Shown in pieces: positions 20,599 through 64,000 of a stretch of 64,000 nucleotides of DNA (positions are counted from its first letter, which is position 1; every line of letters begins with the position of its first letter). The position numbers and the translations under genes were made by a program. This DNA is from a virus (Duplodnaviria; Heunggongvirae; Uroviricota; Caudoviricetes): the IMG/VR virus record IMGVR_UViG_2875703104_000004. One strand, given 5' to 3'. The notes beneath the pieces were generated by a model. The model did not search any database. It was not told the origin of the DNA and worked only from the letters and a program-made list of their open reading frames with translations.

Positions 20599-21167
20599 AA
20601 ACGGGGGCTGAAGCCATCCGCGCACTGGCCACACAGCTCCCGGTGTTTCGTCAGAAACTGAGCGACGGCTGGTATCAGGTACGGATTGCCGGGCGGGACG
20701 TCAGCACGTCCGGGTTAACGGCGCAGTTACATGAGACTCTGCCTGATGGCGCTGTGATTCATATTGTTCCCAGAGTCGCCGGGGCCAAGTCAGGTGGCGT
20801 ATTCCAGATTGTCCTGGGGGCTGCCGCCATTGCCGGATCATTCTTTACCGCCGGAGCCACCCTTGCAGCATGGGGGGCAGCCATTGGGGCCGGTGGTATG
20901 ACCGGCATCCTGTTTTCTCTCGGTGCCAGTATGGTGCTCGGTGGTGTGGCGCAGATGCTGGCACCGAAAGCCAGAACTCCCCGTACACAGACAACGGATA
21001 ACGGCAAACAGAACACCTATTTCTCCTCACTGGATAACATGGTTGCCCAGGGCAATGTTCTGCCGGTTCTGTACGGTGAAATGCGCGTGGGGTCACGCGT
21101 GGTTTCTCAGGAGATCAGCACGGCAGACGAAGGGGATGGTGGTCAGGTTGTGGTGATTGGTCGCTGA
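20496..21167 (+). CDS. I: Tail tip assembly protein I
   Basis: 223 aa MAATHTLPLASPGMARICLYGDLQRFGRR...; lambda gpI-like; overlaps K 3' end. Confidence 0.9.
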   Translation: MAATHTLPLASPGMARICLYGDLQRFGRRIDLRVKTGAEAIRALATQLPVFRQKLSDGWYQVRIAGRDVSTSGLTAQLHETLPDGAVIHIVPRVAGAKSGGVFQIVLGAAAIAGSFFTAGATLAAWGAAIGAGGMTGILFSLGASMVLGGVAQMLAPKARTPRTQTTDNGKQNTYFSSLDNMVAQGNVLPVLYGEMRVGSRVVSQEISTADEGDGGQVVVIGR

Positions 21168-21185
21168 TGCAAAATGTTTTATGTG

Positions 21186-21214
21186 AAACCGCCTCCGGGC
21201 GGTTTTATCGTTTA
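21186..21214 (+). other. Stem-loop with T-rich tail in the 60-bp I-J spacer
   Basis: AAACCGCC-tccg-GGCGGTTT then TATCGTTTAT. Confidence 0.35.
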
Positions 21215-21227
21215 TGGAGCATGAGGA

Positions 21228-24200
21228 ATGGGTAAAGGCAGCAGTAAGGGGCATACCCCGCGCGAAGCGAAGGACAACCTGAAATCATCCCAGATGCTGA
21301 GCGTGATAGACGCCATCAGCGAAGGGCCGGTTGAAGGTCCGGTGGATGGATTAAAAAGCGTGCTGCTGAACAGTACGCCGGTGCTGGACAGTGAGGGGAA
21401 TACCAATATATTCGGCGTCACGGTGGTGTTCCGGGCCGGTGAGCAGGAGCAGACACCGCCGGAGGGATTTGAATCCTCCGGCTCCGAGACGGTGCTCGGT
21501 ACAGAAGTGAAATATGACACGCCGATCACCCGGACCATCACGTCGGCAAACATTGACCGTCTGCGTTTTACTTTCGGCGTGCAGGCACTGGTGGAAACCA
21601 CCTCAAAGGGGGACAGGAATCCATCGGAAGTCCGCCTGCTGGTTCAGATTCAACGTAACGGTGGCTGGGTGACGGAAAAAGACATCACCATTAAGGGCAA
21701 AACCACGTCGCAGTATCTGGCCTCGGTGGTGGTGGATAACCTGCCGCCGCGCCCGTTTAATATCCGGATGCGCAGGATGACGCCGGACAGCACCACAGAC
21801 CAGTTGCAGAACAAAACGCTCTGGTCGTCATACACCGAAATCATCGATGTGAAACAGTGCTACCCGAACACGGCACTGGTCGGCGTACAGGTGGACTCGG
21901 AGCAGTTCGGCAGCCAGCAGGTGAGCCGTAATTATCATCTTCGCGGGCGCATTCTGCAGGTGCCGTCGAACTATAACCCGCAGACGCGGCAATACAGCGG
22001 TATCTGGGACGGAACGTTTAAGCCAGCATACAGCAACAACATGGCCTGGTGTCTGTGGGATATGCTGACCCATCCGCGCTACGGCATGGGGAAACGTCTT
22101 GGTGCGGCAGATGTGGATAAATGGGCGCTGTATGTCATCGGCCAGAATTGCGACCAGTCAGTGCCGGACGGCTTTGGCGGCACGGAGCCGCGCATCACCT
22201 GTAATGCGTACCTGACCACACAGCGCAAGGCGTGGGATGTGCTCAGTGATTTTTGCTCGGCGATGCGCTGTATGCCGGTATGGAACGGGCAGACGCTGAC
22301 ATTCGTGCAGGACCGACCGTCGGATAAGGTGTGGACCTATAACCGCAGTAATGTGGTGATGCCGGATGATGGCGCGCCGTTCCGCTACAGCTTCAGCGCC
22401 CTGAAAGACCGCCATAATGCCGTTGAGGTGAACTGGATTGACCCGGATAACGGCTGGGAGACGGCGACAGAGCTTGTGGAGGACACGCAGGCCATTGCCC
22501 GTTACGGTCGTAACGTCACGAAGATGGATGCCTTTGGCTGTACCAGCCGGGGGCAGGCACACCGCGCCGGGCTGTGGCTGATTAAAACGGAGCTGCTGGA
22601 AACGCAGACCGTGGACTTCAGCGTGGGTGCAGAAGGGCTTCGCCATGTACCGGGCGATGTCATTGAAATCTGTGATGATGACTATGCGGGGATCAGCATC
22701 GGCGGGCGCGTGCTGGCGGTGAACAACCAGACGCGGACACTGACGCTCGACCGTGAAATCACGCTGCCATCCTCCGGCACCACGCTGATAAGCCTGGCTG
22801 ACGGACAGGGGAATCCGGTCAGCGTGGAGGTCCAGTCCGTCACCGACGGCGTGAAGGTAAAAGTGAGCCGTGTTCCTGACGGCGTTGCAGAATACAGCGT
22901 GTGGGGGCTGAAGTTGCCAACGTTGCGCCAGCGCCTGTTCCGCTGTGTGAGTATCCGTGAGAACGATGACGGCACGTATGCCATCACTGCCGTGCAGCAT
23001 GTACCGGAAAAAGAGGCCATCGTGGATAACGGGGCGCACTTTGACGGCGACCAGAGCGGCACGGTGAATGGTGTCACGCCGCCAGCGGTGCAGCACCAGC
23101 GGGGAATATCAGGTGCTGGCGCGCTGGGACACGCCGAAGGTGGTGAAGGGGGTGAGCTTTATGCTTCGCCTGACCGTGGCAGCGGATGACGGCAGTGAGC
23201 GGCTGGTCAGCACGGCCCGGACGACGGAAACCACATACCGCTTCAGGCAACTGGCGCTGGGGAACTACAGGCTGACAGTCCGGGCGGTAAATGCGTGGGG
23301 GCAGCAGGGCGATCCGGCATCGGTATCGTTCCGGATTGCCGCACCGGCAGCGCCGTCGCAGATTGAGCTGACACCGGGGTATTTTCAGATAACCGCCACG
23401 CCGCATCTTGCGGTTTATGATCCGACGGTACAGTTTGAGTTCTGGTTCTCGGAAAAGCGGATTGCGGATATCAGGCAGGTTGAAACCACAGCACGCTATC
23501 TTGGCACGGCGCTGTACTGGATAGCCGCCAGTATCAATATCAAACCGGGCCATGATTATTATTTTTACATCCGCAGTGTGAACACCGTTGGCAAATCGGC
23601 ATTTGTGGAGGCTGTTGGCCAGCCGAGTGATGATGCATCCGGCTATCTGAATTTTTTCAAAGGAGAGATAGGGAAAACCCATCTGGCTCAGGAGTTGTGG
23701 ACGCAGATTGATAACGGTCAGCTTGCGCCTGACCTGGCTGAAATCAGGACGTCCATTACGGGTGTCAGCAATGAAATCACGCAGACCGTCAATAAGAAAC
23801 TGGAAGACCAGAGTGCAGCGATCCAGCAGATACAGAAGGTTCAGGTTGATACAAATAATAACCTGAACAGCATGTGGGCTGTGAAGCTGCAGCAGATGCA
23901 GGACGGACGCCTTTATATCGCGGGTATTGGTGCCGGTGTTGAGAATACTCCTGACGGTATGCAGAGTCAGGTGCTGCTGGCGGCGGACAGGATTGCGATG
24001 ATTAATCCTGCGAATGGCAACACAAAGCCGATGTTTGTTGGGCAGGGCGATCAGATATTCATGAACGAAGTGTTCCTGAAATATCTGACGGCTCCCACCA
24101 TTACCAGCGGTGGCAATCCCCCAACGTTTTCACTGACACCTGATGGTCGACTTTCTGCGAAAAATGCGGATATCAGCGGTAACGTGAACGCGAACTCCGG

Positions 24201-38296: not shown

Positions 38297-40988
38297 TCTT
38301 GTTATTGACCTGAGTCTGGATGCTGTCCGTTTCGATGAGCAGATGAGCCGGGTAAGGCGTCATTTTTCAGGTCTGGATACCGACGCCAGAAAAACCGCCA
38401 GTGCTGTTGAACAGGGCCTGAGCCGCCAGGCGCTGGCTGCACAAAAAGCCGGGATTTCCGTCGGGCAGTATAAAGCGGCCATGCGAACCCTGCCCGCACA
38501 GTTTACGGATATCGCCACGCAGCTTGCCGGTGGTCAGAATCCCTGGCTGATCCTGCTGCAACAGGGCGGTCAGGTGAAGGACTCCTTCGGCGGGATGATC
38601 CCCATGTTCAGGGGGCTTGCCGGTGCGATCACCCTGCCGATGGTCGGGGTCACCTCGCTGGCGGTGGCGACAGGTGCGCTGGTGTACGCCTGGTACCAGG
38701 GAGATTCCACGCTTTCAGCGTTTAATAAAACCCTGGTTCTTTCCGGTAATCAGTCCGGACTGACTGCCGATCGCATGCTGACGCTCTCCAGAGCCGGACA
38801 GGCCGCAGGGCTGACGTTTAACCAGGCGAGTGAGTCACTGGCAGCCCTGGTGAATGCCGGTGTGCGTGGTGGTGAACAGTTTGATGCCATCAACCAGAGT
38901 GTCGCGCGTTTTGCTTCTGCATCCGGTGTGGAGGTGGACAAGGTTGCAGAGGCTTTCGGAAAACTGACCACTGACCCGACGTCGGGGCTGATTGCGATGG
39001 CGAAGCAGTTCCATAACGTGACGGCGGAGCAGATTGCGTATGTTGCTCAGTTGCAGCGTTCCGGCGATGAAGCCGGGGCATTGCAGGCGGCGAACGAGGC
39101 CGCAACGAAAGGGTTTGATGACCAGACCCGACGCTTGAAAGAGAACATGGGCACGCTGGAAACCTGGGCAGACAGGACAGCACGGGCATTCAAATCCATG
39201 TGGGATGCGGTGCTGGATATTGGTCGTCCTGATACCGCGCAGGAGATGCTGATTAAGGCAGAGGCCGCGTTTAAGAAAGCGGACGATATCTGGAATCTGC
39301 GCAAGGATGATTATTTTGTTAACGATGAAGCGCGGGCGCGTTACTGGGATGATCGTGAAAAGGCCCGTCTTGCGCTTGAAGCCGCCCGAAAGAAGGCTGA
39401 GCAGCAGAGTCAACAGGACAAAAATGCGCAGCAGCAGAGCGATACCGAAGCGTCACGGCTGAAATATACCGAAGAGGCGCAGAAGGCTTACGAACGGCTG
39501 CAGACGCCGCTGGAGAAATATACCGCCCGTCAGGAAGAACTGAACAAGGCACTGAAAGACGGGAAAATCCTGCAGGCGGATTACAACACGCTGATGGCGG
39601 CGGCGAAAAAGGATTATGAAGCGACGCTGAAAAAGCCGAAACAGTCCGGCGTGAAGGTGTCTGCGGGCGATCGTCAGGAAGACAGTGCTCATGCTGCCCT
39701 GCTGACGCTTCAGGCNGAACTCCGGACGCTGGAGAAGCATGCCGGAGCAAATGAGAAAATCAGCCAGCAGCGCCGGGATTTGTGGAAGGCGGAGAGTCAG
39801 TTCGCGGTACTGGAGGAGGCGGCGCAACGTCGCCAGCTGTCTGCACAGGAGAAATCCCTGCTGGCGCATAAAGATGAGACGCTGGAGTACAAACGCCAGC
39901 TGGCTGCACTTGGCGACAAGGTTACGTATCAGGAGCGCCTGAACGCGCTGGCGCAGCAGGCGGATAAATTCGCACAGCAGCAACGGGCAANNNNNNNNNN
40001 NNNNNNNNNNNTGGCGCATAAAGATGAGACGCTGGAGTACAAACGCCAGCTGGCTGCACTTGGCGACAAGGTTACGTATCAGGAGCGCCTGAACGCGCTG
40101 GCGCAGCAGGCGGATAAATTCGCACAGCAGCAACGGGCAAAACGGGCCGCCATTGATGCGAAAAGCCGGGGGCTGACTGACCGGCAGGCAGAACGGGAAG
40201 CCACGGAACAGCGCCTGAAGGAACAGTATGGCGATAATCCGCTGGCGCTGAATAACGTCATGTCAGAGCAGAAAAAGACCTGGGCGGCTGAAGACCTGCT
40301 TCGCGGGAACTGGATGGCAGGCCTCAGGTCCGGCTGGAGTGAGTGGGAAGAGAGTGCCACGGACAGTATGTCGCAGGTAAAAAGTGCAGCCACGCAGACC
40401 TTTGACGGTATTGCACAGAATATGGCAGCGATGCTGACCGGCAGCGAACAGAACTGGCGTGGTTTCACCCGTTCTGTGCTGTCCATGCTGACAGAGATTT
40501 TTCTGAAGCAGGCGATGGTGGGGATTGTCGGGAGTATCGGCAGCGCTATTGGCGGGGCTGTTGGTGGCGGCGCATCCGCGTCAGGCGGTACAGCCATTCA
40601 GGCCGCTGCGGCGAAATTCCATTTTGCAACCGGAGGATTTACGGGAACCGGCGGCAAATATGAGCCAGCGGGGATTGTTCACCGTGGTGAATTTGTCTTC
40701 ACGAAGGAGGCAACCAGCCGGATTGGTGTCGGCAACCTGTATCGTCTGATGCGCGGGTATGCGGAAGGTGGTTATGTCGGCGGTGCCGGAAGTCCGGCGC
40801 AGATGCGGCGGGCCGAAGGTATTAATTTTAATCAGAACAATCACGTGGTGATTCAGAACGACGGTATCAACGGACAGGCGGGGTCGCAGCTGATGAAGGC
40901 GGTGTATGACATGGCCCGCAAGGGGGCACAGGATGAACTCCGGCTGCAGTTGCGTGATGGCGGTCTGTTATCAGGGAGCGGTCGATGA
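38277..40988 (+). CDS. H: Tape measure protein H (copy 2), inflated by an N-gap with duplicated flanks
   Basis: 903-aa ORF; 21 N at 39991-40011 flanked by repeats of ~130 bp. Confidence 0.85.
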   Translation: MSQPVGDLVIDLSLDAVRFDEQMSRVRRHFSGLDTDARKTASAVEQGLSRQALAAQKAGISVGQYKAAMRTLPAQFTDIATQLAGGQNPWLILLQQGGQVKDSFGGMIPMFRGLAGAITLPMVGVTSLAVATGALVYAWYQGDSTLSAFNKTLVLSGNQSGLTADRMLTLSRAGQAAGLTFNQASESLAALVNAGVRGGEQFDAINQSVARFASASGVEVDKVAEAFGKLTTDPTSGLIAMAKQFHNVTAEQIAYVAQLQRSGDEAGALQAANEAATKGFDDQTRRLKENMGTLETWADRTARAFKSMWDAVLDIGRPDTAQEMLIKAEAAFKKADDIWNLRKDDYFVNDEARARYWDDREKARLALEAARKKAEQQSQQDKNAQQQSDTEASRLKYTEEAQKAYERLQTPLEKYTARQEELNKALKDGKILQADYNTLMAAAKKDYEATLKKPKQSGVKVSAGDRQEDSAHAALLTLQXELRTLEKHAGANEKISQQRRDLWKAESQFAVLEEAAQRRQLSAQEKSLLAHKDETLEYKRQLAALGDKVTYQERLNALAQQADKFAQQQRAXXXXXXXXAHKDETLEYKRQLAALGDKVTYQERLNALAQQADKFAQQQRAKRAAIDAKSRGLTDRQAEREATEQRLKEQYGDNPLALNNVMSEQKKTWAAEDLLRGNWMAGLRSGWSEWEESATDSMSQVKSAATQTFDGIAQNMAAMLTGSEQNWRGFTRSVLSMLTEIFLKQAMVGIVGSIGSAIGGAVGGGASASGGTAIQAAAAKFHFATGGFTGTGGKYEPAGIVHRGEFVFTKEATSRIGVGNLYRLMRGYAEGGYVGGAGSPAQMRRAEGINFNQNNHVVIQNDGINGQAGSQLMKAVYDMARKGAQDELRLQLRDGGLLSGSGR

Positions 40989-41314
40989 AAACCTTTCGCT
41001 GGAAAGTGAAGCCGGATATGGAGGTGAACTCGCAGCCATCGGTGCGTGAAGTGCGTTTTGGTGACGGGTACTCACAGCGTATGGCGGCAGGGCTGAATGC
41101 TGACCTGAAAACATACAGGGTGACGCTTTCCGTGACCCGGGAGGAGGCCCGGCATCTGGAAGCGTTCCTGGCAGAGCACGGTGGCTGGAAGGCATTTTTG
41201 TGGAAGCCACCCTATGCATACCGGCAGATAAAGGTGACCTGTGCCGGGTGGTCTGCGCGGGTCGGGATGTTGCGCGTTGAGTTCAGCGCGGAGTTTAAGC
41301 AGGTGGTGAACTGA
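40985..41314 (+). CDS. M: Tail tip protein M (copy 2)
   Basis: 109 aa. Confidence 0.9.
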   Translation: MKTFRWKVKPDMEVNSQPSVREVRFGDGYSQRMAAGLNADLKTYRVTLSVTREEARHLEAFLAEHGGWKAFLWKPPYAYRQIKVTCAGWSARVGMLRVEFSAEFKQVVN

Positions 41315-41949
41315 TGCAGGATATTCGCGAAGAAAGTCTGAACGAGTCGGTTAAGTCAGAGCAGTCACCGCGGGTGGTACTCTGGGAAATCGACCTGACG
41401 GTACAGGGTGGTGAGCGGTATTTTTTCTGTAATGAGCTGAATGAAAAAGGGGAGCCGGTCACCTGGCAGGGGCGTAAGTATGAGGCATACCCGATTGACG
41501 GCAGCGGCTTTGAGATGAACGGCCGGGGCAGCAGTGCCAGACCGTCGCTGACGGTGTCGGTCCGCCGCCGGGTGTATGCCCGTTTTCTGGATGCGGTGAA
41601 TTTCGTTGCGGGCAATCCGGAGGCGGACCCGGAGCAGGAGCTGAGTGACCGCTGGGTGGTGGAGCAGATGTCGCAGCTGACAGCCATGACGGCCTCGTTT
41701 GTGCTGGCTACACCGACCGAGACGGACGGGGCGCTGTTTCCCGGTCGCATCATGCTGGCGAACACCTGTATGTGGGATTACCGGGGAGATGAATGCGGGT
41801 ATAACGGTCCTGCGGTGGCGGATGAGTTCGATAAACCCACCACGGATATCCGTAAGGACAGATGCAGCAAGTGCATGCGCGGGTGTGAACTGCGCAGGAA
41901 TGTCGGCAATTTTGGCGGTTTCCTTTCCATTAATAAACTTTCGCAGTAA
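41314..41949 (+). CDS. L: Tail tip protein L (copy 2), 63-bp in-frame deletion
   Basis: 211 aa; lacks NLFGLVTGMAEDLQSLVGATV present in other copies. Confidence 0.85.
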   Translation: MQDIREESLNESVKSEQSPRVVLWEIDLTVQGGERYFFCNELNEKGEPVTWQGRKYEAYPIDGSGFEMNGRGSSARPSLTVSVRRRVYARFLDAVNFVAGNPEADPEQELSDRWVVEQMSQLTAMTASFVLATPTETDGALFPGRIMLANTCMWDYRGDECGYNGPAVADEFDKPTTDIRKDRCSKCMRGCELRRNVGNFGGFLSINKLSQ

Positions 41950-42145
41950 ATCCCGGTTTATGAGGCAGTCTGTGTTATGTATCTTCTTTCGGGTGGGTAC
42001 AGGGCAGTGCGCGATTTCTGGCGCAGGCAGATTGATAAAAGGGCCGCTGAGAGAATCAGCGCCAGTCAGTCAGCCGGAAGCAAACCCGAAGATCCGCTCA
42101 TTCCGTAGTCACTTTCTTGACAACACCTTTCAACGAGAAAATCCC

Positions 42146-42467: not shown

Positions 42468-42833
42468 ATGTACCAGATGGAAAAAATCACAACAGGTGTG
42501 TCATACACCACGTCAGCGGTGGGAACGGGCTACTGGTTCCTGCAGTTGCTGGACAGGGTTTCCCCGTCTCAGTGGGCGGCAATAGGCGTGCTGGGGAGTC
42601 TGCTGTTTGNNNNNNNNNNNNNNNNNNNNNAAAAAATCACAACAGGTGTGTCATACACCACGTCAGCGGTGGGAACGGGCTACTGGTTCCTGCAGTTGCT
42701 GGACAGGGTTTCCCCGTCTCAGTGGGCGGCAATAGGCGTGCTGGGGAGTCTGCTGTTTGGGCTGCTGACATATCTGACTAACCTGTATTTCAAAATCAGA
42801 GAGGACCGGCGTAAGGCGGCGCGGGGAGAGTAA
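42468..42833 (+). CDS. Phage 21-type pinholin (copy 3) with dual start MYQM; inflated by N-gap duplication
   Basis: ...[66 protein letters not shown]; 21 N at 42610-42630 with ~130-bp duplicated flanks. Confidence 0.8.
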
Positions 42834-59324: not shown

Positions 59325-60179
59325 TGCAGGATATTCACGAAGAAAGTCTGAACGAGTCGGTTAAATCAGAGCAGTCACCGCGGGTGGTACTCTGGGAAAT
59401 CGACCTGACGGTACAGGGCGGTGAGCGGTATTTTTTCTGTAATGAGCTGAATGAAAAAGGGGAGCCGGTCACCTGGCAGGGGCGTAAGTATGAGGCATAC
59501 CCGATTGACGGCAGCGGCTTTGAGATGAACGGCCGGGGCAGCAGTGCCAGACCGTCGCTGACGGTGTCCAATCNGTGGTGAGCGGTATTTTTTCTGTAAT
59601 GAGCTGAATGAAAAAGGGGAGCCGGTCACCTGGCAGGGGCGTAAGTATGAGGCATACCCGATTGACGGCAGCGGCTTTGAGATGAACGGCCGGGGCAGCA
59701 GTGCCAGACCGTCGCTGACGGTGTCCAATCTGTTCGGTCTGGTCACCGGGATGGCGGAAGACCTGCAGAGTCTGGTGGGGGCCACGGTGGTCCGCCGCCG
59801 GGTGTATGCCCGTTTTCTGGATGCGGTGAATTTCGTTGCGGGCAATCCGGAGGCGGACCCGGAGCAGGAGCTGAGTGACCGCTGGGTGGTGGAGCAGATG
59901 TCGCAGCTGACAGCCATGACGGCCTCGTTTGTGCTGGCTACACCGACCGAGACGGACGGGGCGCTGTTTCCCGGTCGCATCATGCTGGCGAACACCTGTA
60001 TGTGGGATTACCGGGGAGATGAATGCGGGTATAACGGTCCTGCGGTGGCGGATGAGTTCGATAAACCCACCACGGATATCCGTAAGGACAGATGCAGCAA
60101 GTGCATGCGCGGGTGTGAACTGCGCAGGAATGTCGGCAATTTTGGCGGTTTCCTTTCCATTAATAAACTTTCGCAGTAA
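59324..60179 (+). pseudogene. L: Tail tip protein L (copy 3), inflated by ~150-bp duplication at an N
   Basis: L-like sequence; 59417-59570 repeated at 59576-59727, N at 59573. Confidence 0.7.
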
Positions 60180-61347
60180 ATCCCGGTTTATGACACAGAC
60201 TGAATCAGCGATTCTGGCGCATGCCCGGCGGTGTGTGCCTGCGGAGTCGTGCGGCTTAGTGGTGAGAACGCCGGAGGGGGAGCGGTATATCCCTTGTGTG
60301 AATATCTNCCAATCTGTTCGGTCTGGTCACCGGGATGGCGGAAGACCTGCAGAGTCTGGTGGGGGCCACGGTGGTCCGCCGCCGGGTGTATGCCCGTTTT
60401 CTGGATGCGGTGAATTTCGTTGCGGGCAATCCGGAGGCGGACCCGGAGCAGGAGCTGAGTGACCGCTGGGTGGTGGAGCAGATGTCGCAGCTGACAGCCA
60501 TGACGGCCTCGTTTGTGCTGGCCACACCGACCGAGACGGACGGGGCGCTGTTTCCCGGTCGTATCATGCTGGCGAACACCTGTATGTGGACCTACCGCTC
60601 TGATGAGTGTGGTTACACGGGCGGGGCAGTGGCGGATGAGTTCGATAAACCCACCACGGATATCCGTAAGGACAGATGCAGCAAGTGCATGCGCGGGTGT
60701 GAACTGCGCAGGAATGTCGGCAATTTTGGCGGTTTCCTTTCCATTAATAAACTTTCGCAGTAAATCCCGGTTTATGACACAGACTGAATCAGCGATTCTG
60801 GCGCATGCCCGGCGGTGTGTGCCTGCGGAGTCGTGCGGCTTNCTTTGAGATGAACGGCCGGGGCAGCAGTGCCAGACCGTCGCTGACGGTGTCCAATCTG
60901 TTCGGTCTGGTCACCGGGATGGCGGAAGACCTGCAGAGTCTGGTGGGGGCCACGGTGGTCCGCCGCCGGGTGTATGCCCGTTTTCTGGATGCGGTGAATT
61001 TCGTTGCGGGCAATCCGGAGGCGGACCCGGAGCAGGAGCTGAGTGACCGCTGGGTGGTGGAGCAGATGTCGCAGCTGACAGCCATGACGGCCTCGTTTGT
61101 GCTGGCTACACCGACCGAGACGGACGGGGCGCTGTTTCCCGGTCGCATCATGCTGGCGAACACCTGTATGTGGGATTACCGGGGAGATGAATGCGGGTAT
61201 AACGGTCCTGCGGTGGCGGATGAGTTCGATAAACCCACCACGGATATCCGTAAGGACAGATGCAGCAAGTGCATGCGCGGGTGTGAACTGCGCAGGAATG
61301 TCGGCAATTTTGGCGGTTTCCTTTCCATTAATAAACTTTCGCAGTAA
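60180..61347 (+). repeat. Collapsed-paralog fragments: K 5' pieces and two further L 3' portions, separated by N
   Basis: K-start fragments 60180-60307 and 60766-60841; L 3' parts 60309-60763 and 60843-61347; N at 60308 and 60842. Confidence 0.8.
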
Positions 61348-61357
61348 ATCCCGGTTT

Positions 61358-62101
61358 ATGACACAGACTGAATCAGCGATTCTGGCGCATGCCCGGCGGT
61401 GTGTGCCTGCGGAGTCGTGCGGCTTAGTGGTGAGAACGCCGGAGGGGGAGCGGTATATCCCTTGTGTGAATATCTCTGCAGAGCCGGAGGCGTATTTTCG
61501 TATTGCACCGGAAGACTGGCTGCGGGCAGAGATGCAGGGGGAGATTGTGGCACTGGTCCACAGTCATCCCGGTGGGCTGCCCTGGCTGAGCGAGGCTGAC
61601 CGGCGGCTGCAGATAAAAAGCGCACTGCCCTGGTGGCTGGTCTGCCGGGGTGACATTCACAAATTCCGCTGCGTGCCGCACCTGACGGGACGGCGCTTTG
61701 AGCACGGGGTGACGGACTGTTACACCCTGTTCCGGGATGCATACCATCTGGCGGGGACTGAAATGCCGGATTTTCATCGCGAGGATGACTGGTGGCGCAA
61801 CGGTCAGAACCTTTACCTGGACAATATGGCGGTCACCGGCTTTTACCGGGTGCCCCTGTCCTCTGCACAGGCGGGCGATATTCTGCTGTGCTGCTTTGGT
61901 GCTTCGGTACCGAACCATGCCGCCATTTACTGCGGCAACGGTGAGCTGCTTCACCATCTGCCTGAACAACTGAGTAAACGGGAGAGGTATTCCGAAAAAT
62001 GGCAACGACGAACGCATTCTGTCTGGCGTCACCGCCACTGGCACGCATCTGCCTTCACGGGGATTTGCAACGATTTGGCCGCCGCCTCAGCCTGTATGTG
62101 A
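61358..62101 (+). CDS. K: Tail tip assembly protein K (copy 3)
   Basis: MTQTESAILAHARRCVPAESCG...HSHPGG... Confidence 0.85.
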   Translation: MTQTESAILAHARRCVPAESCGLVVRTPEGERYIPCVNISAEPEAYFRIAPEDWLRAEMQGEIVALVHSHPGGLPWLSEADRRLQIKSALPWWLVCRGDIHKFRCVPHLTGRRFEHGVTDCYTLFRDAYHLAGTEMPDFHREDDWWRNGQNLYLDNMAVTGFYRVPLSSAQAGDILLCCFGASVPNHAAIYCGNGELLHHLPEQLSKRERYSEKWQRRTHSVWRHRHWHASAFTGICNDLAAASACM

Positions 62102-62679
62102 ACACGGCAGCGGAAGCCATTCGCGCCCTGTCGATGCAGATGCCGGGCTTTCGCCGTCAGATGAACGAAGGCTGGTACCAGATACGTATTGCCGGTGATG
62201 ACACGGCACCGGAGGCGGTGTATGCCCGTCTTCACGAACAGCTGGGTGAGGGAACGGTCATCCACATTGTGCCGCGACTGGCCGGGGCCGGAAAGGGTGG
62301 ACTGCAGATTGTGCTGGGGGCGGCAGCCATCGTGGGCTCTTTCTTCACGGCCGGAGGCTCGATGGCGTTATGGGGTACAGCCCTGAGTGCCGGTGGTTTT
62401 TCTGCCACCACGATGCTGTTTTCACTGGGTGCCAGCATGATACTGGGCGGAGTGGCCCAGATGCTGGCCCCGAAGGCAAAAACACCGGATTACCGCGCAA
62501 CGGATAACGGCAGACAGAACACGTACTTTTCCTCGCTGGATAACATGATTGCCCAGGGGAACCCGATGCCGGTGCCTTACGGGGAAATGCTGGTTGGCTC
62601 CCGCCGTATATCCCAGGACATCAGTACCCGTGATGAAGGCGGGGGCGGAAAGGTCGTGGTTATCGGGCGGCAGGGGTAA
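61999..62679 (+). CDS. I: Tail tip assembly protein I (copy 3)
   Basis: 226 aa; lambda gpI-like. Confidence 0.85.
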   Translation: MATTNAFCLASPPLARICLHGDLQRFGRRLSLYVNTAAEAIRALSMQMPGFRRQMNEGWYQIRIAGDDTAPEAVYARLHEQLGEGTVIHIVPRLAGAGKGGLQIVLGAAAIVGSFFTAGGSMALWGTALSAGGFSATTMLFSLGASMILGGVAQMLAPKAKTPDYRATDNGRQNTYFSSLDNMIAQGNPMPVPYGEMLVGSRRISQDISTRDEGGGGKVVVIGRQG

Positions 62680-62683
62680 AAAG

Positions 62684-62723
62684 AATAAAAAAATCCCGCA
62701 GTGATCGCGGACAGGAACTGCGG
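62684..62723 (-). terminator. Minus-strand intrinsic terminator
   Basis: Minus strand: CCCGCAG-(16-nt loop)-CTGCGGG then ATTTTTTTATTCTTTTT. Confidence 0.55.
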
Positions 62724-62783
62724 GAGAGTTACGAAGATTAAGTGTAAGGAATTATTCTTATATCACGACAAAAAAATTAACGC
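62686..62783 (-). ncRNA. Candidate ~95-nt small RNA in I-J intergenic insertion
   Basis: Minus-strand -35 TTCACA / 16-bp spacer / -10 TATAAT (+ coords 62790-62817), no ORF, terminator ~90 nt downstream. Confidence 0.3.
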
Positions 62784-62890
62784 AGAGAAATTATACGCGC
62801 CACAGTCAGTTTGTGAAAATGTGAAGATATTCAGAATTTTTATGCCATTACCGGTTTTAACCAACAGGATTATCGGTGGGCATGAAAGAA

Positions 62891-62918
62891 AACCCCGGTA
62901 TCTGCTGATACCGGGGTT
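62891..62918. terminator. Bidirectional terminator-like hairpin in I-J insertion
   Basis: CCCCGGTATC-tgctg-GATACCGGGG flanked by A-rich and T-rich tracts. Confidence 0.4.
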
Positions 62919-63022
62919 TCTCTTTAGCATGGCAGAAATGTGTTTCATGCTTTTCGGGCGAAGGATATCCGACTTCTGTACGGAATGGCAAGTGGCGGTT
63001 AATTTATTCAGGGGAAGGCTGT

Positions 63023-64000
63023 ATGGGAAAAGGTGGCGGTAAGGCACACACGCCTCGTGAGGCGAAGGATAATCTCAAATCCACGCAGATGATGAGTGTG
63101 ATTGATGCGATTGGTGAGGGACCGATAGAAGGTCCGGTGAAGGGACTGCAGAGTATTCTGGTGAACAAAACCCCACTGACGGACACGGACGGCAATCCCG
63201 TGATACACGGTGTGACGGCGGTCTGGCGTGCCGGGGAGCAGGAGCAGACACCACCGGAAGGCTTTGAGTCCTCCGGAGCTGAAACCGGACTGGGTGTGGA
63301 AGTGACGAAGGCAAAGCCGGTGACGCGCACCATTACGTCCGCGAACATTGACCGCCTGCGGGTTACCTTCGGGGTGCAGTCACTGGTGCAGACCACGTCA
63401 AAGGGCGACCGTAACCCGGCATCCGTCCGCCTGCTGATTCAGTTACAGCGTAATGGCCGCTGGGTGACGGAAAAGGATGTCACCATTAACGGCAAGACCA
63501 CCTCGCAGTTCCTGGCCTCGGTGATTCTGGATAATCTGCCGCCCCGGCCCTTTAACATCCGGATGGTCCGGGAGACGGCGGACAGCACCACGGACCAGTT
63601 GCAGAACAGAACGCTCTGGTCATCGTACACTGAAATCATCGATGTGAAACAGTGCTACCCGAACACGGCCATTGTGGGGCTGCAGGTGGATGCGGAGCAG
63701 TTCGGCGGCCAGCAGATGACGGTGAACTACCATATCCGCGGTCGCATCATTCAGGTGCCGTCAAACTATGACCCGGAAAAACGCACGTACAGTGGTATCT
63801 GGGACGGCAGTCTGAAACCGGCATACAGCAACAATCCGGCCTGGTGTCTGTGGGACATGCTGACTCACCCGCGCTACGGCATGGGAAAACGTCTGGGGGC
63901 GGCGGATGTGGACAAGTGGGCGCTGTATGCCATCGGGCAGTACTGCGACCAGACGGTCCCGGATGGTTTCGGGGGGACCGAGCCGCGGATGACCTTTAAT
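63023..64000 (+). CDS. J: Host-specificity tail tip protein J (copy 3), 5' partial
   Basis: ATG 63023 with RBS; MGKGGGKAHTPREAKDNLKSTQMMSVIDAIGEGPIEGPV...; open to window end. Confidence 0.9.
   Translation, partial: MGKGGGKAHTPREAKDNLKSTQMMSVIDAIGEGPIEGPVKGLQSILVNKTPLTDTDGNPVIHGVTAVWRAGEQEQTPPEGFESSGAETGLGVEVTKAKPVTRTITSANIDRLRVTFGVQSLVQTTSKGDRNPASVRLLIQLQRNGRWVTEKDVTINGKTTSQFLASVILDNLPPRPFNIRMVRETADSTTDQLQNRTLWSSYTEIIDVKQCYPNTAIVGLQVDAEQFGGQQMTVNYHIRGRIIQVPSNYDPEKRTYSGIWDGSLKPAYSNNPAWCLWDMLTHPRYGMGKRLGAADVDKWALYAIGQYCDQTVPDGFGGTEPRMTFN

Follow-up and report, generated by a model that had tools for sequence, protein, structure and literature searches.

The closest described relative of the locus analysed here is PasB (E2348CN_0006), an Hfq-dependent small RNA (sRNA) of prophage PP6 in the EPEC O127:H6 strain E2348/69 and one of five prophage sRNAs found in this strain by Hfq RIL-seq (Pearl Mizrahi et al., Sci Adv 2021, PMC8550237). 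Table S6 of that work lists it at NC_011601 1466343..1466261, minus strand, 83 nt, between E2348C_1436 and E2348C_1437. In Northern blots it gave a band of the predicted size and its stability depended on Hfq; the accompanying tables show log2 changes of -6.8 and -2.4 for the hfq mutant (PMC8550237). PasB was more expressed in overnight static LB than in DMEM and had 37 RIL-seq interactions, being the second RNA in 99-100% of its chimeras, which is the signature of an sRNA (PMC8550237). All these data (expression, size, Hfq dependence and the 37 partners) come from the literature and belong to the E2348/69 allele. Zhu, Shabalina and Storz (bioRxiv 2026, 10.64898/2026.05.13.724894) put the seed just upstream of the terminator, as a conservation-based guess and with none derived from RIL-seq. 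The same authors surveyed complete genomes by blastn with word size 28 and query coverage >75%, found variants with only few-nucleotide differences and described PasB as the least diverse of the Pas sRNAs (10.64898/2026.05.13.724894).

Other prophage sRNAs of this kind are the anti-sRNAs AsxR/AgvB (EcOnc01-03) of EHEC lambdoid prophages (Tree et al. 2014, PMC4104026) and HnrS (EcOnc10-12), also from EHEC lambdoid prophages (Poudyal et al. 2026, PMC13502914). Like PasB, they are prophage-borne, Hfq-associated short RNAs located at moron-type sites, convergent with late transcription, and their alleles make up families in which the 3' part is conserved and the 5' part varies. Unlike PasB, they lie downstream of PR' or after stx, outside the tail module, and their sequences are unrelated. 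Identity with these known EHEC sRNAs was rejected: the E2348-type pasB copy of Sakai is found at 2217631-2217727 in Sp12, where the EcOnc table has no entry, and HnrS is a different gene some 16.5 kb away in Sp12. A broader comparison is with the morons of lambdoid phages such as lom, bor and prophage sodC (Juhala et al. 2000, as presented in a citing paper), discussed below.

The window, i.e. the whole stretch of viral DNA analysed (64,000 nucleotides, IMG/VR record IMGVR_UViG_2875703104_000004), ends with a lambdoid tail module in which genes I and J are separated by a long spacer. Its features are the following.

61999..62679, plus strand: gene I, tail assembly, upstream flank (Pfam Lambda_tail_I PF06805, 1.8e-16)
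62687..62725, minus strand: rho-independent terminator, with a 9-bp stem (62725-62717/62702-62694), a 14-nt loop and U7 (62693-62687)
62687..62783, minus strand: predicted primary transcript of the pasB-family sRNA, about 97 nt (aligned to E2348/69 PasB), its start predicted from the -10 box
62731..62759, minus strand: single-stranded body, candidate Hfq-binding and seed region (conserved columns, unpaired in the consensus fold)
62790..62817, minus strand: sigma-70 promoter, -35 TTCACA (62817-62812), 16-nt spacer, -10 TATAAT (62795-62790), 11 of 12 consensus matches
62820..62835, minus strand: conserved CRP-like dyad TCTGA-N6-TCACA upstream of the -35 box, centre at about -44.5, candidate regulator-binding site
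62836..63022, no strand assigned: second mosaic module, outside the sRNA cassette and recombining independently, with a hairpin and the ribosome-binding region of J
62890..62919, no strand assigned: 13-bp perfect hairpin (arms 62890-62902 and 62907-62919) with U-runs on both strands
63023..64000, plus strand: 5' part of gene J, tail tip, downstream flank (PF24801, 1.4e-41, FNIII-A_GpJ; gpJ in RefSeq), continuing past the end of the window

The stop codon of I (TAA, 62677-62679) and the ATG of J at 63023 delimit a spacer of 343 bp (62680-63022). There is another lambdoid tail module in the window, with the stop codon of I at 21165-21167 and the start of J at 21228, which leaves a spacer of 60 bp (21168-21227), a length as in phage lambda. 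The two spacers could not be aligned to each other, as anticipated in a preliminary description made by inspection of the sequence, which had given 60 and about 340 bp of unrelated sequence. The GC content of the long spacer is 41.7%, against 60.5% in I and 58.8% in J, and this AT-richness fits inserted DNA. The spacer has, in addition to the extra DNA (343 versus 60 bp) and the deviant GC, its own promoter and terminator, all marks of a moron. As far as the lambdoid morons are described in the citing paper, the likeness lies in these same points (extra DNA between conserved genes, own promoter and terminator, different base composition) and the difference is in the cargo, a non-coding RNA here and a protein gene there. 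An IS or repeat fragment had been named beforehand as the finding that would speak against an sRNA gene; the 343-bp spacer has no IS-like ends, no terminal inverted repeats and no target-site duplication, and a transposon or IS origin was rejected as unsupported on these grounds. The spacer upstream of J (62957-62967) and the 5' end of J (63061-63071) share an exact 11-nt direct repeat, GGCGAAGGATA, which may be due to chance.

The part of the spacer next to I is organized as an sRNA gene on the minus strand. The preliminary description had reported there a promoter, about 90 nt without ORF and a terminator with seven Ts, and all of them are present: the promoter matches the consensus at 11 of 12 positions, no ORF in the predicted 97-nt transcript exceeds 3 codons, and the terminator is formed by a 9-bp stem with fully (100%) complementary arms (UCCCGCAGU at 62725-62717 and ACUGCGGGA at 62702-62694) followed by U7. 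This 9-bp stem with its U7 agrees with the description of an sRNA 3' end in table S6 of Pearl Mizrahi et al. (3' stem-loop, U tract of at least 4). The terminator ends 8 nt away from the stop codon of I. Folding of the 97-nt transcript gave -19.4 kcal/mol (z = -2.1), nearly all of it contributed by the terminator. The body preceding it contains an A-R-N-rich tract, AAGAAUAAU (62759-62751), the motif UUCCUUA (62750-62744) and a conserved core, UUAAUCUUCGU (62741-62731). From what is generally known of Hfq-dependent sRNAs, an RNA that binds Hfq and acts by base pairing would be expected to look like this, with A-R-N repeats, a long unpaired body and a U tail. The consensus scan for promoters by itself was not above chance (3 promoter-like sites in 2 kb versus 1.3 expected), and the feature is accepted as real because it is conserved across phages and identical with an experimentally detected sRNA.

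The spacer also has two stop-free frames, of 113 codons on the plus strand (62701-63042) and of 94 codons on the minus strand (62763-63047), which are unusually long for 343 bp of AT-rich DNA and might point to a protein-coding insert. However, none of the other alleles and spacer types keeps the plus frame intact, the minus frame is open only in the same mosaic module, neither has a Pfam match, and the indels between alleles are not multiples of three. The coding potential of both frames was rejected for the lack of conservation and of Pfam matches; they are probably fortuitous, and we give a coding insert a negligible probability.

The cassette between I and J is a real sRNA gene and a divergent, unannotated allele of the described PasB. 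The genes E2348C_1436 and E2348C_1437 that flank pasB in E2348/69 code for the tail assembly protein and gpJ and are 240 bp apart, so that the location between I and J, antisense to the late operon, is common to the window, E2348/69 and 8-9 phage loci. When the spacers were aligned on the sRNA strand, a 66-nt promoter block was identical at 62 of 66 positions (94%) to that of E2348/69 pasB, the start region GCGTTA was shared, and 27 nt comprising the terminator 3' arm and the U tail (TCCGCGATCACTGCGGGATTTTTTTAT) were identical. The core (U/C)(A/G)AUCUUC is also common to both RNAs. Furthermore, the probe used in the PasB Northern blot (AATCCCGCAGTGATCGCGGAGCT) matches the plus strand of the window at 20 of 23 positions (62692-62711), within the terminator. 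From the start to the U tail the identity is 69%, and two intermediate alleles link the window form with that of E2348/69: PhiR12_4 (83% to E2348/69 and 70% to the window) and 1720a-02 (72% and 74%). The published 5' end of the E2348/69 RNA, taken from read coverage, maps to about 62769, 14 nt downstream of the start at 62783 predicted from the -10 box; either the start was mispredicted or the RNA is processed.

The preliminary description, which recognised the locus from the raw sequence alone, was thus right in proposing an sRNA gene antisense inside a late operon, since the homologous locus of E2348/69 makes an RNA detected by Northern blot and RIL-seq, and the finding is now largely explained. 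It had not recognised the element as a described one: PasB was described in 2021 and its distribution surveyed in 2026. The Rfam check proposed with it gave no family at the gathering threshold in the window spacer, where a permissive search found only sub-threshold, terminator-like noise, and nothing reached the gathering threshold in the E2348/69, VT1-Sakai and PhiR12_4 loci either. We found no literature on the window allele in UPEC under another name. The present analysis establishes the anatomy, homology, synteny, allele structure and distribution of the window allele; its expression, Hfq dependence, seed and regulator we infer.

The same cassette was found in the same I-J spacer of nine phage loci, with pairwise transcript identities of 54-99%. 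For a wider view, IMG/VR was scanned with a pattern taken only from the 3' part of the RNA and chosen without regard to the promoter, which yielded 121 loci with 55 distinct sequences, 50 of which retain the dyad. These 50 and the window copy were grouped at 90% identity into 11 clusters, and one of the two largest contains the window allele. There are at least 11 allele classes of pasB in phage databases. Throughout the alleles the -10 box, the start region CTGCGTTA, a U-run near the 5' end and the terminator are kept, and so are the A-rich tract of A-R-N triplets, the motif (C/U)UCC(U/C/A)U and the core UUAAUCUUC, within which AUCUUC was demanded by the search pattern. The consensus fold contains the terminator helix only and leaves the body unpaired. 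As the terminator stem is invariant in all alleles, covariation speaks neither for nor against it.

A scan of one genome per species with a 3'-part pattern gave 41 matches, mostly generic terminators in unrelated taxa. The genuine ones were in E. albertii and in contigs labelled Streptomyces and Parendozoicomonas. The last two are short contigs (Streptomyces flavalbus NZ_JBHTEB010000006.1 and Parendozoicomonas haliclonae NZ_FWPT01000051.1) with an E. coli-type pasB cassette and the flank of gene I, and probably reflect contamination of public assemblies. In phage Stx2_EH1846 (LC567840.1) and in E. albertii NZ_BBMY01000216.1, a same-strand sequence linked to sodC takes the place of the pasB promoter, with the body and terminator of pasB lying in the 3' region of the prophage sodC. 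These copies are either promoterless remnants or the source of a 3'-UTR-type sRNA. Extra genes, sodC among them, recur at the I-J junction.

The existence of such truncated forms raises the question of whether the window allele too might be decaying or silent, that is, mosaic DNA simply inherited with a non-functional promoter or RNA. Against this, its promoter matches 11 of 12 consensus positions and is 94% identical to the active one of E2348/69, its terminator is intact, and the 97 nt are found at 99-100% identity in hundreds of genomes of different lineages. We regard a silent remnant as very unlikely.

The preliminary description spoke of a single insertion of 340 bp. The extra DNA inside the operon stands, the single insertion does not: judged by comparison of spacer sequences, this region is a two-part mosaic in which only about 62684-62835 corresponds to the sRNA cassette, the rest (62836-63022) being a separate module. 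This separation follows from two patterns. In PPompW-type phages the right part of the spacer is nearly identical to that of the window, yet their pasB allele is of the E2348 type (91.3% identity to the window over the whole spacer and 80.2% in the pasB part), and the phages Stx1a, Stx2c and PhiR5_1 have the window-type allele at 94-97% and lack the right part. In E2348/69 pasB is present and the second module absent, the spacer being of 240 bp there against 343 bp with the extra module in the window.

The second hairpin noticed in the preliminary description lies in this right-hand module, and its arms are indeed perfect over 13 bp (62890-62919). It probably belongs to the late operon rather than to the sRNA gene, since every I-J spacer type has a counterpart a short distance before J, in which a U-run comes after a GC-rich stem on the strand of the late operon. 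This counterpart is formed by AAACCGCC..GGCGGUUUU in the lambda-type spacer of 60 bp (21186-21206 in the window), and in the 240-bp spacer by CAGGCACC..GGUGCCUG followed by UUGUUUUU, with a compensatory change from C:G to U:A between phages. These hairpins were seen upstream of J in loci L001-L009 and have unrelated sequences in the different spacer types. They look like a conserved terminator-like or RNA-stabilising element, for which we know of no described role. A plus-strand sRNA ending at the second hairpin was considered and discarded, as no promoter was found on that strand and the short spacers leave no room for one.

Upstream of the -35 box the cassette carries the dyad TCTGA-ATATCT-TCACATTT (62835-62820, minus strand). 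It agrees with the CRP consensus TGTGA-N6-TCACA at 9 of 10 core positions, with a perfect right half (TCACATTT), a degree of similarity for which one match in 64 kb is expected by chance. Both half-sites are unchanged in 50 of the 55 distinct IMG/VR sequences, the N6 taking five forms, and the distance from the dyad to the start region GCGTTA is fixed at 52 nt (51 or 53 in two sequences) even where the -35 box has diverged. This conserved promoter dyad suggests host-controlled expression. CRP sites are 22 bp long, and are centred at -41.5 in class II promoters and at -61.5 or further upstream in class I promoters; from the predicted start, the centre of the dyad is at about -44.5, which is neither of the canonical positions. 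PasB of E2348/69 is expressed in overnight LB, a condition in which Spf, repressed by CRP, is low; this fits activation by CRP, and other stationary-phase regulators fit equally well. We propose regulation by CRP through this dyad only tentatively and consider it rather doubtful.

Taken as a whole, the data are best explained by a pasB-family gene, a moron-like sRNA cassette between the lambdoid genes I and J, antisense to the late operon and coding for an Hfq-dependent RNA acting in trans, to which we give a probability of about 0.82. In the lysogen, host RNA polymerase would start at the near-consensus sigma-70 promoter, perhaps modulated by a host regulator bound to the CRP-like dyad, and the intrinsic terminator would end transcription to give an RNA of about 83-97 nt. 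Hfq would be bound by the U7 tail and probably by the A-R-N tract, and the unstructured body (UUCCUUA ... UUAAUCUUC) would be free to pair with host and prophage mRNAs, altering their translation or stability.

The orientation of the gene allows for another role, as a cis-antisense regulator of the late operon that would cause cleavage or interference between I and J and lower the expression of J; conversely, the late mRNA could mop up PasB on induction. Late transcripts crossing the I-J junction are perfectly complementary to PasB, whose 3' end is only 8 nt from the stop codon of I, and the antisense orientation is kept in all loci examined. Pearl Mizrahi et al. (PMC8550237) themselves mark PasB as '(> <) >', an antisense overlap with the 3' region of the upstream gene. 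However, the ribosome-binding site of J is about 240 nt away and is not overlapped, nor is any coding sequence, and the RIL-seq partners of the E2348/69 allele in trans are many and come from both the core and the accessory genome. The variation of the body would also be unneeded, because any sequence complements its own antisense strand. A cis-antisense function is unlikely on this balance, and it would be compatible with the trans-acting one.

Going back to the trans-acting RNA, the body varies between alleles and the promoter and terminator are fixed, so that different prophages probably deliver different target specificities. A more specific proposal would make the I-J junction a multi-allelic sRNA locus, with at least 11 classes, an exchangeable pairing region and a fixed promoter, dyad and terminator, of which the window holds an ExPEC allele with targets of its own. 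We consider this possible, and on present data less probable than not by a good distance. If it were true, each prophage would install its own set of host targets with its pasB allele, and the window allele would be an unstudied form prevalent in ExPEC (CFT073, IAI39, ATCC 25922), roughly as common as canonical PasB and with carbon- or stationary-phase-responsive expression.

We have compared the presence of both forms in 5,426 complete E. coli genomes. The 97 nt of the window were found in 800 of them (~15%), among them IAI39 and ATCC 25922, with 613 records at >=99% identity, and the whole spacer (~343 bp) is 100% identical in CFT073, S88 and others. In the 40 records listed, no annotated feature underlies the match, the gene being unannotated in RefSeq there. 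The E2348-type allele was present in 956 of the 5,426 genomes, including O157 Sakai (Sp12) and ST131. With the 83-nt E2348/69 PasB as BLAST query, the window gave no match at word size 28, and lowering the word size to 11 and 7 brought up only a 25-nt match to the terminator (~30% of the query). The window allele falls outside the limits of the 2026 survey (word size 28, coverage >75% with the 83-nt PasB), which are a search rule and not a biological definition, and without a match at word size 28 it is probably missing from the counts of that survey. The PasB family is considerably more polymorphic than stated there, in a search seeded with one allele at that word size, and ~15% of complete E. 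coli genomes, those of standard laboratory strains of ExPEC among them, have an unannotated allele. With an Rfam-type model of the locus, a label would be given to ~1,750 genomes that carry no mark at present (800 window-type and 956 E2348-type), some of which may have both alleles.

Elsewhere in the window, pieces of the tail genes L and K recur in two to three copies that are 94-100% identical (59420-61475 and 41295-41963). Single N bases are found at the joins of the L/K repeats (59574, 60308 and 60842), and there are runs of 20 Ns at 39991-40011 and 42610-42630. The repeats look like an artefact of a draft genome, in which multi-copy prophage genes were scaffolded or assembled wrongly, and not like a true tandem duplication.
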